A program made the translations under genes and the position numbers. The notes below the pieces were generated by a model, which saw only the letters and a program-made list of their open reading frames with translations, ran no database searches and was not told the DNA's origin. Below, piece by piece: positions 1,719-34,762 of a stretch of DNA of 64,000 nucleotides; the first letter of the stretch is position 1; each line of letters begins with the position of its first letter. Source of the DNA: Candidatus Norongarragalinales archaeon (GTDB lineage: Archaea > Micrarchaeota > Micrarchaeia > Norongarragalinales > Norongarragalinaceae); assembly GCA_038884755.1 (NCBI GenBank), contig JAWABJ010000001.1, positions 192,001-256,000 of the forward strand, given 5' to 3'.

Positions 1719-2369
1719 TTACTTCTTGCGCAAAACCAAAAACAAGTGGTCTTGCTCGAACGGCTCCAAGGGGATTTCCTGCTCGATTTCGAAAGCCTCG
1801 GAAAGGGTTTTTTTCACTTTCGCGTACACGCGCGCAGGTTCTTCGACGGAATTTATTGCGCGTGACTTGATTGCAATCAGCGCATAACCCCCTTTCGCGA
1901 GAAAACGGGAGTTCGCGTTGAGTATTTCCGCCTGCTGGGGGTCTGCAACATCCTCGAAAACCACATCGACAGAGCCGATTTCCTCGTAATTCTCGGGCTT
2001 GCGCGCGTCGGCAAGGATGGGTATCATGTTGCCCCGTTTTTCGCACACGCTGATTAAATCGCGCATGGCGATGGGTGCTACTTCAATGCAGTAAACTTCC
2101 CCTTTGCTTCCCACTATGTCGCTTACGAACGAGGGCGTGGCGCCGTGTGCTGCGCCCAAATAAAGGACTTTAGACCCTTTGGTTATGGGCATGTGCTTGA
2201 TGCCTTTCGCAATCGCCGCGCAAAGCTTGCTTTGGTGGGGGTTCCACTCGCGGTATTGAATTCCTTTTTCCTCGACGAGCTTTTCCCCGTGCACCTTGAA
2301 TCCTTTGAGGGAATTGCGCGTGTAGAAAAAGCTGTTTTGCGCGTAAATCCCCGGAAAAATTTCTTTCAC
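1719..2369 (-). CDS. flpA: Fibrillarin-like rRNA/tRNA 2'-O-methyltransferase
   Basis: YREWNPHQSKL, KVLYLGAAHGATPSFVSD, PILADARKP, EDVADPQQA. Confidence 0.97.
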   Translation of the reverse strand: MKEIFPGIYAQNSFFYTRNSLKGFKVHGEKLVEEKGIQYREWNPHQSKLCAAIAKGIKHMPITKGSKVLYLGAAHGATPSFVSDIVGSKGEVYCIEVAPIAMRDLISVCEKRGNMIPILADARKPENYEEIGSVDVVFEDVADPQQAEILNANSRFLAKGGYALIAIKSRAINSVEEPARVYAKVKKTLSEAFEIEQEIPLEPFEQDHLFLVLRKK

Positions 2370-2389: not shown

Positions 2390-3367
2390 TCAGCGCCTGC
2401 CTTTGTTGAAGCGCTTGAAAGGCTTTTTGCCGAACGATTTTCCGCTCCCGCCGTGGAAAGGCCTGCCTTCGACCGGCCTTCCGCCGAATCTCCTTTCGCC
2501 AAACGGCTTGCGCCTGTAATCGTCTTCCCTGCTGCCCTCGCGGTAGTTGTGCTTAGGCTTTTCGGACTGCGGTTTGATTGGCGTTTCCTGGATTTGTTTC
2601 AAGCGCTTTTCGAAATGCTCCTTGAGCTTTGGCGCGATGAAGTGGTGAGTGTAGAAGTCAGCCTTAGCGGCAATCGCCAGTTTGGTTGCAAGCGCGCGCG
2701 CGATGCGCCCGCGCTGGTGCATAGGCGCGGAGTTTATTGCAGGATGCTGGAATATGATGCCGTGCTTCGGTGGGCGCGTGTGTTGTCTTAAGTGTTTGAA
2801 CAAACTCTTTTCGGCGCCAATTACTTGAATGGTTGAAGCTGGCATTTCCGCCAGGTTTTTGAGCGAGCCTGCGAGCGCAAGAAGCCTTGCGGCGAGCAGC
2901 GGGTCGAGCAAATACGTCACGTTCTTGAGCTCTTTTTCAACCATGCCTTTCACGTATTCCTCAGTCTCTTTCCTCGCTTCCATGATTTCGGCTATTTGCT
3001 TTGCGAAAACTTGAACAGCCTTAGAGTCTTCCTTGTCGAACTTCGCTCCATAACTGGATTCAGAGGCGACCATGATGGCGTTTGCCTTCGACTCGCTGGC
3101 TATTTCAGCAAGCTTTTTCTCCTCATAGTGCTCTTTGCTTCCGAACTCTGCCGCTATTCGCGCGAGCACGTCTTCGTTCACGCGCAAGTCGGGAAAATTG
3201 ACTTTATACCATTCGTTGAGCCTTTGCTGGAGTAGGCTTTTGACTTCGTCCAAATCGTCTATGCTACGTACGGCTTGGATGATCAACGCGTCTTTTTGGG
3301 ACAAAGCTTCCTGGGTTTGCTTTTTCGCCTTTTCCAAGAACTTTTTCCTAGTTTCAAGAGCCTTCAC
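2390..3367 (-). CDS. nop5: C/D box RNP protein Nop5 (Nop56/58)
   Basis: LIIQAVRSIDDLD, MPASTIQVIGAEKSLF, PPKHGIIF, GRIARALATKLAIAAKAD; likely GTG start at 3367 after GGGTGG; adjacent to flpA. Confidence 0.95.
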   Translation of the reverse strand: MKALETRKKFLEKAKKQTQEALSQKDALIIQAVRSIDDLDEVKSLLQQRLNEWYKVNFPDLRVNEDVLARIAAEFGSKEHYEEKKLAEIASESKANAIMVASESSYGAKFDKEDSKAVQVFAKQIAEIMEARKETEEYVKGMVEKELKNVTYLLDPLLAARLLALAGSLKNLAEMPASTIQVIGAEKSLFKHLRQHTRPPKHGIIFQHPAINSAPMHQRGRIARALATKLAIAAKADFYTHHFIAPKLKEHFEKRLKQIQETPIKPQSEKPKHNYREGSREDDYRRKPFGERRFGGRPVEGRPFHGGSGKSFGKKPFKRFNKGRR

Positions 3368-3472
3368 TGTTAACCACCCTTCCGTAGAAAAGCAAAATAA
3401 CCGTTTTAAAACTCTATATAGAGTAAGATAGTAGCAGGGCGTTTTTAATCCCCGCGATTGAAGTGTGTTGAA

Positions 3473-4960
3473 ATGTCTCAAGCTCAAGGGAAAATAGACA
3501 AGGTCGTCAACCTGTGTTCGAGGCGCGGGTTGGTTTTCCCGAATTCCGAAATCTACTCTCCTCTCGGCGGGTTTTTCGACTACGCGCACTACGGACTCGC
3601 GATTAAAAAAAGAATCGCAAGTGCGTGGTGGGATTACTTCGTCAAGCAAAGGGAGGACGTAGTGGGTTTGGACGGCTCGATAATCTCCTCGCCCAAGGTT
3701 TGGAAAGCGAGCGGGCATCTTGAAAACTTTACCGACCCGCTGGTGGAATGCAAGAAATGCAAATCGCGCTTTCGCGCAGACCAGCTCGTGCGCGATGAAT
3801 TAAAGCTTGAAGTGGAAGGGCTGGACGAAAAAACGCTGGCGAAACTCATTAGCGAGCACAAGCTCGTGTGCGAAAAGTGCAGGGGAGAGCTTGCTGAAGC
3901 GAAGACGTTCAATTTGATGTTCAAGACGCAAGTGGGCGTTATTGAAGACGATGCGAACGCAGTTTTCCTTCGCCCCGAGACGGCGCAAACTATTTTCGCG
4001 GACTTCAAGTCAATCGCTGGTTTCGCGCGCAAAAAGCTTCCTTTCGGAATAGCGCAAATTGGAAAGGCGTTTAGAAACGAAATTTCTCCAAGGAATTTTC
4101 TTTTTCGCGCGCGAGAGTTCGAACAGATGGAATTGGAGTTTTTCCTGCACCCTAACAAAAGTCCGCGTTTCGATAAAATAAAGCTCAACCAAAAAATCAA
4201 GGTTTTTACCGCACGCGCCCAGTCTCAAAAAAGTGGGTTGGTTGAAAAAAGCGTGGAAAAGCTGTTTGAAGAAAAGATTGTTTCTAACGAATGGCTGGTG
4301 TACTGGCTTGCCGAAGCGTGGTTTTTCTTGACTGAAGAACTGGGACTGAAGAAAGAGAATCTGCGAATGCGCCAGCATGTCGCTACCGAGTTGTCGCACT
4401 ATTCGAAAGAAACCTGGGACGTGGAATATGATTATCCAGAGTGGGGCTGGAAGGAACTCGTGGGAATAGCCAACCGCGGGGACTTCGACTTGCAGCAGCA
4501 CCAAAAGCATTCAGGTAAAGACCTTTCGGTTTTCGACGAAGAGTCGAAGCAAAAGGTTCTGCCGACAGTCATCGAGCCTTCCTTCGGCTTGGACAGGCTT
4601 TTCTTCACGGTGCTTATCGATTCTTTCGAAGAAGAGGGTGAGAAGACTGTTTTGAAGCTCGAAAGGCGGATAGCGCCTCTCGACTGCGCGGTTTTCCCTC
4701 TGATGGCGAAAGACGGGCTGGACGAAAAAGCGAGAGAGGTTTTCGAAATGCTCAAGCACCTCGGGTTGGAGTGCGAGTACGACGAGAGAGGAAGCATTGG
4801 AAAGCGCTACGCTCGCATGGACGAAATCGGAGTGCCACTATGCATTACTGTCGATTACGATTCTTTGGAAAAGAACGATTGCACCGTGCGCTATCGCGAT
4901 TCGGGAAAGCAGGAAAGGGTTTTAATCACTCTTTTGCCTGAAAAACTGCATTCTGCCTGA
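3473..4960 (+). CDS. glyS: Glycine--tRNA ligase (alpha2 type)
   Basis: LRPETAQ, FGIAQIGKAFRNEISPR, EFEQMELEFF, VIEPSFGLDR, SIGKRYARMDEIG. Confidence 0.97.
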   Translation: MSQAQGKIDKVVNLCSRRGLVFPNSEIYSPLGGFFDYAHYGLAIKKRIASAWWDYFVKQREDVVGLDGSIISSPKVWKASGHLENFTDPLVECKKCKSRFRADQLVRDELKLEVEGLDEKTLAKLISEHKLVCEKCRGELAEAKTFNLMFKTQVGVIEDDANAVFLRPETAQTIFADFKSIAGFARKKLPFGIAQIGKAFRNEISPRNFLFRAREFEQMELEFFLHPNKSPRFDKIKLNQKIKVFTARAQSQKSGLVEKSVEKLFEEKIVSNEWLVYWLAEAWFFLTEELGLKKENLRMRQHVATELSHYSKETWDVEYDYPEWGWKELVGIANRGDFDLQQHQKHSGKDLSVFDEESKQKVLPTVIEPSFGLDRLFFTVLIDSFEEEGEKTVLKLERRIAPLDCAVFPLMAKDGLDEKAREVFEMLKHLGLECEYDERGSIGKRYARMDEIGVPLCITVDYDSLEKNDCTVRYRDSGKQERVLITLLPEKLHSA

Positions 4961-8804: not shown

Positions 8805-10001
8805 ATGGCTAAACGGGATGCGACTTCGTTCTTGAAGCAGGAGTATGAAGCGCTGGTGCAGCAAAGCTTGGACTGGCGGATAAAGCAGTTGCAAGGCCCT
8901 TCAACCGCGCACGCGAAAGTCGACGGCAAGAATGTTTTGATGCTTTGTTCTAACAATTACTTGAATTTGTCCAACCACCCCAAACTCAAGGAAGCGGCTA
9001 TACGCGCGGTGCAAACGCACGGCGCAGGGAGCGGCAGCGTAAGGGCAATTGCGGGAAGCATGGATTTGCACTTGGCTTTGGAAAGAAAGATAGCTTCGTT
9101 CAAACACGCCGAAGCAGCGTTGTACTATCAGACTGGTTTTGCGGTGAACGCGGGTTTGATTCCGCAGTTGGTGGGCGAAGGCGACGTGGTGATAAGCGAT
9201 GAATTAAACCACGGTTCCATCATTGACGGCGTAAGGTTGAGCAAGGCGGAACGCGCGATTTACAAGCACTGTGACGTCGGCGATTTGGAGAGAGTATTGA
9301 AGGAATTGGATTCCAGACCCACGCCCCCGAGAAGAATTTTGGTTATCACTGACGGTGTTTTTTCTATGGACGGCGACATCGCGCCGTTGGACAAGATTGC
9401 CGGCATTGCAGAAGCGCACGGCGCGATGGTTTACGTTGACGACGCGCACGGCGACGGAGTGCTGGGCGAAGGCGGGAGGGGTATAGTAAATCATTTTCAT
9501 TTGGAGGGGAAAGTGCACGTGGAAATGGGCACTTTCTCGAAAGCTTTCGGAGTCGTCGGGGGCAGTATTGCCGGTAGCAAAGACTTGGTTGCTTTCGCGT
9601 TGAACAAGTCGCGCACTTGGCTGTTGAGCGGTTCTGCGCCTCCTGCGACTGTCGCTGCATGCTTTGCAGCGCTGGAAGTTTTGGAAACAGAGCCGCAGCA
9701 TTTCAAGAAACTGTGGGACAACACGAATTACTTCAAGAAAGAGTTGCAGGCGCTGGGTTTCGATACGGGCGTGAGCCAAACGCCCATAACGCCAGTGATA
9801 GTTGGGGAAAGCGGGAAAGCGAAAGCGTTGAGCGAAAAGCTCTTTGAAACAGGCGTTTTCGCCCTGCCCATTGTTTTTCCGATGGTTGCGAAAGACAAGG
9901 CGAGAATACGCACGATGATGAATGCAGGGCTTTCGAAAGAGGATTTGGATTTTGCTTTGAACGCATTCGAAAAATCGGGCAAGGAACTCGGAATAATTTG
10001 A
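8805..10001 (+). CDS. kbl: 2-amino-3-ketobutyrate CoA ligase (glycine C-acetyltransferase), class II PLP enzyme
   Basis: CSNNYLNL, SDELNHGSIIDG, TDGVFSMDGD, DDAHG, GTFSKAFG; adjacent to tdh. Confidence 0.88.
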   Translation: MAKRDATSFLKQEYEALVQQSLDWRIKQLQGPSTAHAKVDGKNVLMLCSNNYLNLSNHPKLKEAAIRAVQTHGAGSGSVRAIAGSMDLHLALERKIASFKHAEAALYYQTGFAVNAGLIPQLVGEGDVVISDELNHGSIIDGVRLSKAERAIYKHCDVGDLERVLKELDSRPTPPRRILVITDGVFSMDGDIAPLDKIAGIAEAHGAMVYVDDAHGDGVLGEGGRGIVNHFHLEGKVHVEMGTFSKAFGVVGGSIAGSKDLVAFALNKSRTWLLSGSAPPATVAACFAALEVLETEPQHFKKLWDNTNYFKKELQALGFDTGVSQTPITPVIVGESGKAKALSEKLFETGVFALPIVFPMVAKDKARIRTMMNAGLSKEDLDFALNAFEKSGKELGII

Positions 10002-18549: not shown

Positions 18550-18617
18550 CCAAAGGGAATTCCAGCCTATAAGAAACATGGCGGTTGGTTTTTATTTGCT
18601 TTTTGAATTCTGTATTC

Positions 18618-20681
18618 ATGCTAGCCGCCGAAGCCACGCAAATCCCGATAGTAGAAATAGGCGTGATAGTCTTGGCGGCGCTGTTTTTCGGGATAATCGC
18701 CTCGCGATTGCGCCTTCCCACTTCCATAGGCTACATAATTGCAGGCTTTCTCCTCGGCCCCCAAGTTTTTCATTTCCTGACGCCGAACGAGGGTATCGCG
18801 CAGCTGTTCGGCGAAATAGGCCTTTTGCTCTTGCTTTTCTATCTGGGTTTGGAATTGAGCATAAAGAAATTCAAGGAAAGCGGCGCCTTGGCGTCCATAA
18901 TAGCTTTCGTTGAAATGGGAATACCATTTTTGTTCTCTTTCCTCGTTGCACTCGCGTTCGGCTTTGGCTTTACCGAAGCGCTGGTCATAGGCGCGATGCT
19001 CACTGCGACAAGCACGGTCATGGTAACGAAATTCATGTTCGACCGGCGCATAGAAAAGGAGCCTGAATCGAGGCTGGGGATTTCCATTCTCGTCGTCGAA
19101 GACTTTTTCGCCATTCTCGTTTTGGCTTTCCTGTTCAGCATTTCCAACGCCGTTTCGTTCAAGCAAACGCTCTTGAATGGCGTTCTTTTCGTTGTCGCGA
19201 TGTTTTTCGTCGTAAGCCGCGTCACGCGCTTCGTATCGAGCTTTTTCGAGCGGCACGGGAAGACGAGCGTAATGACGCTCTTCGCCTTGGGCGTGGGCAT
19301 AATGGTCGCCTACTTCAGCTCTTACCTCGGGCTTACCATAGCGTTGGGCGCCTACTTCGCGGGTTTTGCGCTGACCGAAACGCCTTTCGGCGAGAGGGTG
19401 AAAAAGGAAATTGGCTTCATGCGCGAGTTTTTCATACTCTTCTTTTTCGTTGGCTTTGGAACTACGGTAACCACACCTTCTTCCGGCTCGCTCGTCCTAG
19501 TCTTCGCTCTAGTGGCTTTCTACATCCTCGCTAAAATCATCGCCTACGGGTTTTTCGCGACGGCGTTCGGCTTGGGCATGAACTCGGCAATAAAGCTCGG
19601 CATGATGATGATTCCCATAGGCGAGTTCAGTCTGATAATCGCGGCGGCTTCCGCGCCTTTCATGCGCAATGCCGGCGAAATAATCTCTATAGCGTTCCTC
19701 CTCACTATAGTTTCCACGCTGATTTCTCCCGTGCTTTTCGACAATTCCAAGCGCATAGCTGAATTAGTGTCGTCGTTGTACCCGAAAAAACTGCGCAAGT
19801 CGATAAACGCCTTGGGAAAGGAACTGCATTCGCTGGAAAAAGTTTCGCAAAACCCCGCGTTCCAAAACGAATTATCGCGGGCTTTGGAAAGCTTCGTTTT
19901 GAATTCGGTAGTGGCGTTGGCGATAGTCTACATGAGCTTCCTCGCTTCTTTCAACGTCGACCTGAGCTTCATTCCTTTCCTCCCTCCGGAAATTTCCATC
20001 AACGTCTTGATACTGCCTTTAGTTTTCTGGCCAATATACAAGGCAATCAATGACTTGAAGTTCATCGCTTACTCCGCAGTCTCGCAGTGGTCACGCCAGC
20101 ACTTTCCGTACTGGAAGAGGCACCACGACGCGGGTATTGCCGCGTCGGAAATAATCACTTCTTTCGTCCTTACACTGGCGGGTGTTTTCGCGTGCTTTCT
20201 CTTCTACTTTACTAGCACCGAGCTCTTGCTTGTCCCCCTTCTTTTCACGCTGCTCGCGCTCATGTACTTGAGCAAGAGCATTTACTCGCTGTTCGAACAG
20301 GCGGAAGATTTACAGGCGGTTGCCGAAAGCGGCGGCGTTTCGGGAAAGGAAGTGCTTTCCTTGAGCAGGGAACTGCGGATGCGCGCTCAGAAAATCGCCG
20401 AGTTGAACGAAGAGCGCGAAAAATCCTTGAGGGAAATCCGCGCGGCGCTGGGCGCGGGGAAAATGGCGAAAGCGCGCTCGGAAATGCAGCACTTCAAAAA
20501 GCGCGAGGCGGCAATCCTGGCAAAACTCGAAGGCGCGGAAAAACGATTGGAAAAGAAAGAATTCGCCGCGCTTTCGCGCGAGGAGACTGCCACGAAAAAA
20601 GCGCTGGAAAGTTATTTCCTTAAGCAAGCCCCGCGCATCCTAGGCGAAAAGCGCAAGTCTTCGAAAAAGCCCAAGCGTTGA
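18618..20681 (+). CDS. CPA2 (Kef-type) cation:proton antiporter with C-terminal membrane and coiled-coil extension
   Basis: GYIIAGFLLGP, GLLLLLFYLGLE, TATSTVMV, ILVVEDF, PIGEFSLII. Confidence 0.9.
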   Translation: MLAAEATQIPIVEIGVIVLAALFFGIIASRLRLPTSIGYIIAGFLLGPQVFHFLTPNEGIAQLFGEIGLLLLLFYLGLELSIKKFKESGALASIIAFVEMGIPFLFSFLVALAFGFGFTEALVIGAMLTATSTVMVTKFMFDRRIEKEPESRLGISILVVEDFFAILVLAFLFSISNAVSFKQTLLNGVLFVVAMFFVVSRVTRFVSSFFERHGKTSVMTLFALGVGIMVAYFSSYLGLTIALGAYFAGFALTETPFGERVKKEIGFMREFFILFFFVGFGTTVTTPSSGSLVLVFALVAFYILAKIIAYGFFATAFGLGMNSAIKLGMMMIPIGEFSLIIAAASAPFMRNAGEIISIAFLLTIVSTLISPVLFDNSKRIAELVSSLYPKKLRKSINALGKELHSLEKVSQNPAFQNELSRALESFVLNSVVALAIVYMSFLASFNVDLSFIPFLPPEISINVLILPLVFWPIYKAINDLKFIAYSAVSQWSRQHFPYWKRHHDAGIAASEIITSFVLTLAGVFACFLFYFTSTELLLVPLLFTLLALMYLSKSIYSLFEQAEDLQAVAESGGVSGKEVLSLSRELRMRAQKIAELNEEREKSLREIRAALGAGKMAKARSEMQHFKKREAAILAKLEGAEKRLEKKEFAALSREETATKKALESYFLKQAPRILGEKRKSSKKPKR

Positions 20682-20712
20682 ACTAATAAACTCCAGTGAA
20701 CAAAATTTTGTT

Positions 20713-20769
20713 TAGTGATGATAACTGAACAACCTCTGAACCGATGATGAGGCTGATAGCGTCTGATCC
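20713..20769 (+). ncRNA. C/D box guide sRNA (dual guide)
   Basis: C GTGATGA 20715-21; guide 20722-35; D' CTGA 20736-39; C' ATGATGA 20744-50; guide 20751-62; D CTGA 20763-66; TAATAAA at 20684-90. Confidence 0.88.
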
Positions 20770-20842
20770 AGGAGAAACTACGTTTCTCCCTGGAACCCTC
20801 TTCCTGCGACGAAATTAATACTCCCGACTTCATTCTTTTTTC

Positions 20843-34635: not shown

Positions 34636-34762
34636 TAGCCCCGGGCGGATTCGAACCGCCGTCAACGGGTATCTTTTCGCAAAGCGGAGTTGCTCGCCCC
34701 GAAAGGCTCGCTTATCCGTGCGTGCCAAAGCCCGCTATACTGGGCCGCTATACGACGGGGCT
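34636..34762 (-). tRNA. tRNA-Gln(TTG) with a 54-nt intron at 37/38 (34671-34724)
   Basis: AGCCCCG/CGGGGCT acceptor stem; GCGGG-CT-TTG-G|intron|A-CCCGT; BHB central helix CTTT/AAAG. Confidence 0.92.

Follow-up and report, generated by a model that had tools for sequence, protein, structure and literature searches.

[quoted passage not shown]

The sRNA gene and its genomic setting

The window (the whole 64,000-nt stretch of DNA that was analysed) contains an sRNA gene at 20715-20766, which is confirmed as a real dual-guide archaeal box C/D sRNA. The features of the locus are listed in Table 1. The four boxes (C, D', C' and D) with guides of 14 and 12 nt are present where the original prediction had placed them, and its reading of the locus as a C/D sRNA with two guides, from a DPANN archaeon, was right. 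The layout is that of archaeal C/D sRNAs: the boxes follow in order, the guides fall within 10-14 nt, and the predicted length is within about 50-60 nt. A strict search for the four boxes gave one match in the window and three in the genome, but none in the 25.6 Mb that resulted when the window was dinucleotide-shuffled 400 times. In the Rfam search that had been proposed, no existing family reached its gathering threshold at the sRNA, and the C/D matches there were sub-threshold only (snoPyro_CD, 24.7 bits with a cut-off of 45; sR14, 20.8 bits with a cut-off of 38).

Table 1. Features of the sRNA locus and associated genes in the window
Feature	Position	Strand	Evidence or remark
Box C (GTGATGA)	20715..20721	+	sequence
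D' guide, 14 nt	20722..20735	+	sequence and pairing with own 23S
Box D' (CTGA)	20736..20739	+	sequence
Box C' (ATGATGA)	20744..20750	+	sequence
D guide, 12 nt	20751..20762	+	sequence and pairing with own 23S
Box D (CTGA)	20763..20766	+	sequence
TATA-position element (TAATAAA)	20684..20690	+	-31 to -25 from box C
Downstream hairpin	20767..20794 (core 20772-20788)	+	palindrome; putative role
Cation/proton antiporter gene (PF00999)	18585..20681	+	conserved upstream neighbour of the free-standing sRNA
Fibrillarin gene	1719..2369	-	PF01269, 253.9 bits
Nop5 gene	2390..3718	-	PF01798, 174.8 bits

The window copy is intergenic: two protein genes flank it, and no stable-RNA gene encloses it in a bulge-helix-bulge intron. 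It starts 33 nt past the stop codon of the antiporter gene and is followed by a gene for a generic SAM methyltransferase; the three share the + strand. An antiporter homologue also adjoins 12 other sRNA loci, some of which are duplicates of one genome. The predicted TATA-like element was recovered as TAATAAA directly 3' of the antiporter stop codon; its position matches a block of (nearly) A/T only at -32 to -26 in 59 distinct upstream regions of free-standing homologues. This element is probably the sRNA's own promoter.

The hairpin that had been noted 3' of the sRNA is also present, with a core that can be extended. It is not conserved behind the homologues (11 of 11 read), and it (window 20767-20812) recurs in the genome behind other stable-RNA genes, namely a tRNA-like gene (C1:638822) and another sRNA (C1:621948), and within or beside another tRNA-like gene (C2:66630). 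It is therefore not part of the guide family, and is possibly a terminator or a processing signal.

Fibrillarin, which is the catalytic subunit of the C/D sRNP, and Nop5 are indeed encoded within the window, about 17 kb from the sRNA. L7Ae-family genes are found in the same genome beyond the window, and the set of fibrillarin, Nop5 and L7Ae is thus complete. In one related RNA run, a single contig covered 37 bases of the 23S.

Predicted targets in the 23S rRNA of the organism

The genome of the window organism (G000; 926,659 bases, 93% complete) carries intron-rich 23S and 16S genes. E. coli numbering was obtained by alignment of its 23S to E. coli rrlB. Guiding by C/D sRNAs needs about 9-12 nt of complementarity, with a Watson-Crick pair at guide position +5. 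The D' guide pairs with 23S 2548-2557 through nine Watson-Crick pairs (+2 to +10) and a G-U pair at +1 (-14.1 kcal/mol); this puts +5 on U2552 of the A-loop, as originally predicted. The D guide pairs from +2 to +12 with 23S 2501-2511 through nine Watson-Crick and two G-U pairs (-17.9 kcal/mol), with +5 on U2504. It fits this segment because G000 has C2503 and A2505 where A2503 and G2505 are usual. The two sites are 48 nt apart, both in domain V, and are the best scoring in the spliced 23S and 16S of G000. Um2552 is near-universal, and U2504 is a pseudouridine in E. coli.

Such matches are weak when taken alone: an equally good score was reached by 37 of 300 shuffles of the D' guide and by 6 of 300 of the D guide. 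A search for exact guide matches over the genome returned chance-level matches only, and G-U pairing had to be allowed.

The catalytic centre of the G000 23S is unusual, with A2499, C2503, A2505, G2448 and a base missing at 2613 (G000:C1:681110-681122, 681375 and 680268-680270, minus strand). A2499 and C2503 are common to most Micrarchaeota families read, and A2505 belongs to the organism's own order. C2503 is also found in Altiarchaeota; the 23S of family f14 differs (A2503, A2505 and G2507).

Guide variation compared with rRNA variation

Relatives are labelled here by G and a number, and families by f and a number. The pattern of the D' arm and box matched 40 of 61 relatives (reversed control, 9 of 61), and 38 of the 40 proved to be full sRNAs on reading. 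The matches in G005 and G044, and second matches in G029, G039, G040 and G046, were rejected as chance matches in coding sequence. A search of 301 genomes of the phylum recovered the 23S segment from 130 of them and the sRNA, by a pattern with an open 12-N D guide, from 75; these totals include the unpublished G234, on which nothing else rests. The titled sequence records with the same sRNA are Micrarchaeota, and two intron-bearing ones are labelled Norongarragalinales.

The pairing at 2505 was tallied by hand in genomes with both rRNA and guide, after G016 (two 23S types) and G027 (foreign-type 23S matches) had been dropped. The genomes with A2505, all of the own order, have U at guide +6 without exception (21 of 21); of the 41 with G2505, 40 have C at +6, and the remaining one (G139) has a U-G pair. 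The 2505 change is one evolutionary event at order level, not 62 independent ones. Read by eye, the 75 copies recovered with the open 12-N pattern all have A at +5 and +7 of the D guide, and +9 and +10 are only C or U opposite G2508 and G2509 in 76 of 76 distinct strings, some of which come from the same genome. The compensatory changes at 2505 support U2504 as the target of the D guide. The G016 and G027 bins contain two 23S types or a 23S unlike that of their order, and contamination is probable.

The D' guide also varies together with its site. The guide was found in 11 of 15 genomes searched with U2555A, and 10 of the 11 have an A-to-U change at D' +8; these compensations fall in two families of different orders (f19 and f11). 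Moreover, G2550U in the 23S of G301 is paired with a C-to-A change at +3 of the D' guide. G135 is a counter-case, which has A2555 and yet an unchanged guide. The Altiarchaeota keep the D' guide, with G2557 in 3 of 5 genomes searched; their D guide differs and fits their 2555-2563.

The sRNA was not found in families f13 (0 of 75) and f14 (0 of 54), whose A-loop differs. A variant-guide search of 65 chosen genomes gave no convincing copy in 24 f14 or 11 f13 genomes, and its matches were about as frequent as in the reversed control. Fibrillarin is present in both families despite this.

From pairing and covariation together, the D' guide can with high confidence be predicted to direct 2'-O-methylation of U2552. 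Methylation of U2504 by the D guide is likely, with somewhat less confidence. Alternatively, the D' arm would methylate U2552 while the D arm would only anchor the RNA or aid folding by pairing with 2501-2511, with little or no methylation of U2504. For example, an A stands opposite C2507 (D guide +8) in 37 of the 41 G2505 genomes, where the duplex is shorter because of this A-C opposition; box D is degenerate in many intronic copies (CGGA, CCGA, CCTA, CAGA), with D' mostly still CTGA; and sR7 of Sulfolobus joins these two regions as well but is predicted to target another nucleotide. However, the register (a 12-nt guide with A at +5) is fixed in all of the 75 copies, most free copies have a perfect box D, and U2504 is also the predicted target of Ignicoccus sR204 (by an inferred numbering offset). 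An arm for anchoring only is therefore unlikely.

A group I intron at 23S 1923 offers the D guide a second site in G000, where 11 contiguous pairs with a conserved P element fit equally well (-17.8 vs -17.9 kcal/mol), and the guide might act on the splicing of this intron. The intron is sporadic (1923/1931 in 3 of 8 operons read) whereas the guide is class-wide; guide variation tracks exon positions 2505, 2508 and 2509; and the guide is conserved in intron-less genomes, e.g. G047. Such a role is very improbable.

The D guide had first been placed on U2613 from a likeness to the typical archaeal 2609-2620 sequence only, but the sequence refutes this target: 2607-2620 of the own 23S reads GGUUGC-AUC, has an alignment gap where 2613 would be and reaches just -5.1 kcal/mol in pairing, compared with -17.9 for U2504. 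The same shortened segment was found in 4 of 4 relatives read at the site. When the guides were aligned to the own rRNA, the expected complementarity of at least 9 nt thus held for U2552 but not for the 2613 site. The 2613 region of the G000 23S follows an endonuclease-bearing intron near 2601.

RlmE homologues

It had been proposed that the guide might replace RlmE, and no RlmE was found in G000 or in the 80 genomes searched. The PF01728 search of G000 gave no match, though at 93% completeness absence from G000 itself is unproven. With TIGR00438 (RlmE), none of the 80 genomes (at least 90% complete) was over the cut-off, the best match being 45 bits against 300; the controls (E. coli, Haloferax, Methanocaldococcus and Methanosarcina) were positive. 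The guide is therefore likely the only source of Um2552 in the window organism. The replacement itself is only half shown, because RlmE is equally missing from families where the guide was not found, and because a guided U2552 was already predicted in archaea.

PF01728 is too broad to call RlmE. Several of its weak matches are fibrillarin itself; the strong matches in f13 and f14 are a TlyA-like S4+FtsJ protein and C-terminal-FtsJ proteins of 370-420 aa, not RlmE. The latter are presumably RlmM-like, by size and layout. These 370-420-aa proteins (L201-L207) exceed 40 bits only in f13 and f14, where the guide was not found, and a stand-alone enzyme may act at the site in these families.

Intron-borne copies in related genomes

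The original prediction missed that homologues of this sRNA reside in introns. In 11 of the 38 relatives carrying the sRNA (G007, G013, G019, G023, G025, G026, G027, G039, G047, G051 and G055, from four families and five genera), the copy lies inside the 23S gene on the coding strand, and a search with the D' arm and box found no second true copy in these 11 genomes. Scans of the collection add three more intron-bearing sequences, which makes 14 distinct insertions in all. The insertions are 100-181 nt long, and all occur at a single site, 23S 1758/1759; the G000 23S has no insertion there. Most intronic copies share box variants (C' TGATGT), and many have degenerate C and D boxes.

All 14 insertions start after GCAG-U-R and end with CUGY-NN, and the GCAG/CUGY 4-bp helix with a 3-nt URA bulge is invariant. 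Most also have a long paired intron stem. Standard splicing cuts lie two bases into each bulge, and predicted excision at 1758/1759 restores the 13-nt joint of intron-less relatives. The search pattern for intron-less junctions had an obligatory A at its end, which made it miss some 23S genes, and its use was confined to reading those junctions. The copies of the relatives are thus placed in introns by a bulge-helix junction and a removal that restores the host RNA (14 of 14). The junction is a relaxed bulge-helix motif, because it has no exon-exon helix. The splicing endonuclease of G000 is encoded with two matching domains in one frame. That of ARMAN-2 cuts relaxed motifs; the motif tested, in the accessible text, is of the hBH type and not exactly that at 1758 (PMC3239211).

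The junction without an exon-exon helix might also mean that the 1758 insertion is unspliced and persists in mature 23S rRNA, where it would form an expansion segment to which the guide is tethered. Retention is quite improbable given the helix and bulge invariant in 14 of 14 insertions and predicted cuts that give the exact intron-less length. The intronic copies are likely spliced and, with less confidence, probably active.

Families f1, f2 and f10 hold both intronic and free forms of the sRNA. Free copies behind the antiporter gene occur in several genera of at least f1 and in titled records beyond it, and this points to the free position as the older of the two. The intron would have captured the guide, with later spread or repeated loss.

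A second guide family, whose pattern occurs in 39 of 68 genomes of the order, was read at 30 loci, a few of which may be discounted as chance matches; it is free at 29 of them and intronic in G007 (L211), where it lies in a 114-nt insertion of the 23S near E. coli 1062. Because of this copy, the second family also appears to switch between free gene and rRNA intron.

Other RNAs and introns of these genomes

The G000 member of this second guide family (G000:C1:621946-622001, - strand; L004/L245) is a C/D sRNA whose conserved D guide fits 16S 1399-1408, with A opposite C1402 at +5; counting the A-C2507 opposition, two A-C mismatches are conserved in these guides. Two more C/D sRNAs are found at G000:C1:272141 and 646434 (both - strand). 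Their best predicted targets are U2438 and G2251 or 16S G191, and C1920.

The 23S also has an intron of about 200 nt near 2476 (L003 about 9140-9345, - strand), and the same site is occupied in G047, G055, G051 and G013. These introns share internal elements, one of which is complementary to 23S 2055-2063, and another intron-borne RNA is possible. The 2476 intron of G000 has a guide-like arm in front of a CTGA, and its complementarity to the junction formed by splicing scores 9.5/10 (+5 = C2475), in a scan where scores of 8.5-9.5 often arise by chance. This arm is only a lead, because the register is not kept in the five other introns read. The 23S genes of G007, G013 and G026 have insertions of 126-147 nt near 2658 with common short elements. 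The window also contains a tRNA gene (34636-34762, - strand) with a 57-nt insertion in the anticodon loop, which Rfam detects and ARAGORN misses.

Proposed mechanism and its meaning

An RNA of about 60 nt would be transcribed from its own promoter and bind L7Ae, Nop5 and fibrillarin. The D' guide would then direct 2'-O-methylation of U2552 in the A-loop and the D guide that of U2504, and the double grip on both sites may also aid folding of the catalytic centre. In some relatives of the same order, the gene would have left its place behind the antiporter gene for a protein-spliced 23S intron at 1758/1759; splicing of the pre-rRNA would release the guide, which would then mark the same rRNA species. 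The probability of this account as a whole, i.e. a dual guide for U2552 and U2504 with an intronic move in relatives, is put at about 0.8.

A more far-reaching version falls slightly short of even odds. In it, the sole Um2552/Um2504 guide of an RlmE-less lineage was captured by a small 23S intron that passed from family to family within one Micrarchaeota order and took the place of the free gene, so that each pre-rRNA would release its own guide 1:1. In its favour are the presence of both forms in f1, f2 and f10, the lack of a second copy in the search of the 11 intron-bearing genomes, the box variants common to most intronic copies, and the similar switch of the second guide family in G007. 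If true, the intron would be no passenger, and its loss would cost the marks of the catalytic centre.

Taken alone, the window copy is a C/D guide of an ordinary kind with good support. By compensatory change, the second arm follows an unusual catalytic centre (A2499, C2503, A2505, no 2613), and this both fixes the target as U2504 and shows that the rRNA variants are real and old. The family also offers a natural comparison of one guide as a free gene and as part of an intron of its own target rRNA. This bears on how archaeal introns gain use, and has parallels with the intron-borne eukaryotic snoRNAs.

Comparison with known systems

The literature search found no guide in an rRNA intron, including in the accessible text of PMC6009581, PMC7994747 and PMC6125680; subscription papers may describe one. 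Among the matches listed, there were no papers on Micrarchaeota C/D sRNAs, and none joining G2505A or A2503C with DPANN, although bioRxiv supplements or figures may do so. The accessible text of a preprint on divergent active sites (10.1101/2024.11.12.623245) names only Thermoprotei and Methanomethylicia, and 2503, 2505 and DPANN do not occur in its main text.

Archaea commonly serve U2552 by a guide, which the accessible text of Dennis et al. 2015 (PMC4644070) predicts for five of seven species. As predicted here, U2552 is guide-directed by sR17 of Methanopyrus kandleri, sR10 of Nanoarchaeum equitans, sR25 of Pyrococcus abyssi and snR52 of yeast, the last two according to the available part of PMC2584109. 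The M. kandleri sR17 even has the same GAACAACC-N-CTGA arm as the window sRNA. However, the partner guides of these four RNAs differ from that of the window sRNA, and none is listed with U2504 in the accessible text.

Close in arrangement is sR7 of Sulfolobus acidocaldarius, also a dual guide predicted for the U2552 equivalent (U2826 of the alignment) and a site in the 2500-2511 strand (accessible text of PMC4644070). Its second target is G2783, which is about G2509 as derived from the offset, whereas that of the window sRNA is U2504. Moreover, U2552 is served by the D' arm here, the sequences are unrelated, and no intron location is reported for sR7 in that text. The U2504 site itself is the apparent target of sR204 of Ignicoccus hospitalis, whose predicted target U2778 of the alignment corresponds to U2504 by offset and guide sequence (same text). 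Unlike the window sRNA, sR204 is known there from one species of seven, its partner target is not U2552, and the A2503/G2505 context is canonical.

The C/D RNA in the euryarchaeal pre-tRNA-Trp intron (Pyrococcus sR50 and Haloferax; accessible text of PMC7994747) resembles the copies of the relatives, as it also lies in a protein-spliced intron and guides its own host RNA. The host of the intronic guide described here is, in contrast, the 23S rRNA, with targets about 750-800 nt from the intron; and unlike the tRNA-Trp type, the same Micrarchaeota guide is also found free-standing in sister genomes, as in the window. The window copy is a new member of the known C/D class, and its family varies by living also in an intron of the target rRNA.
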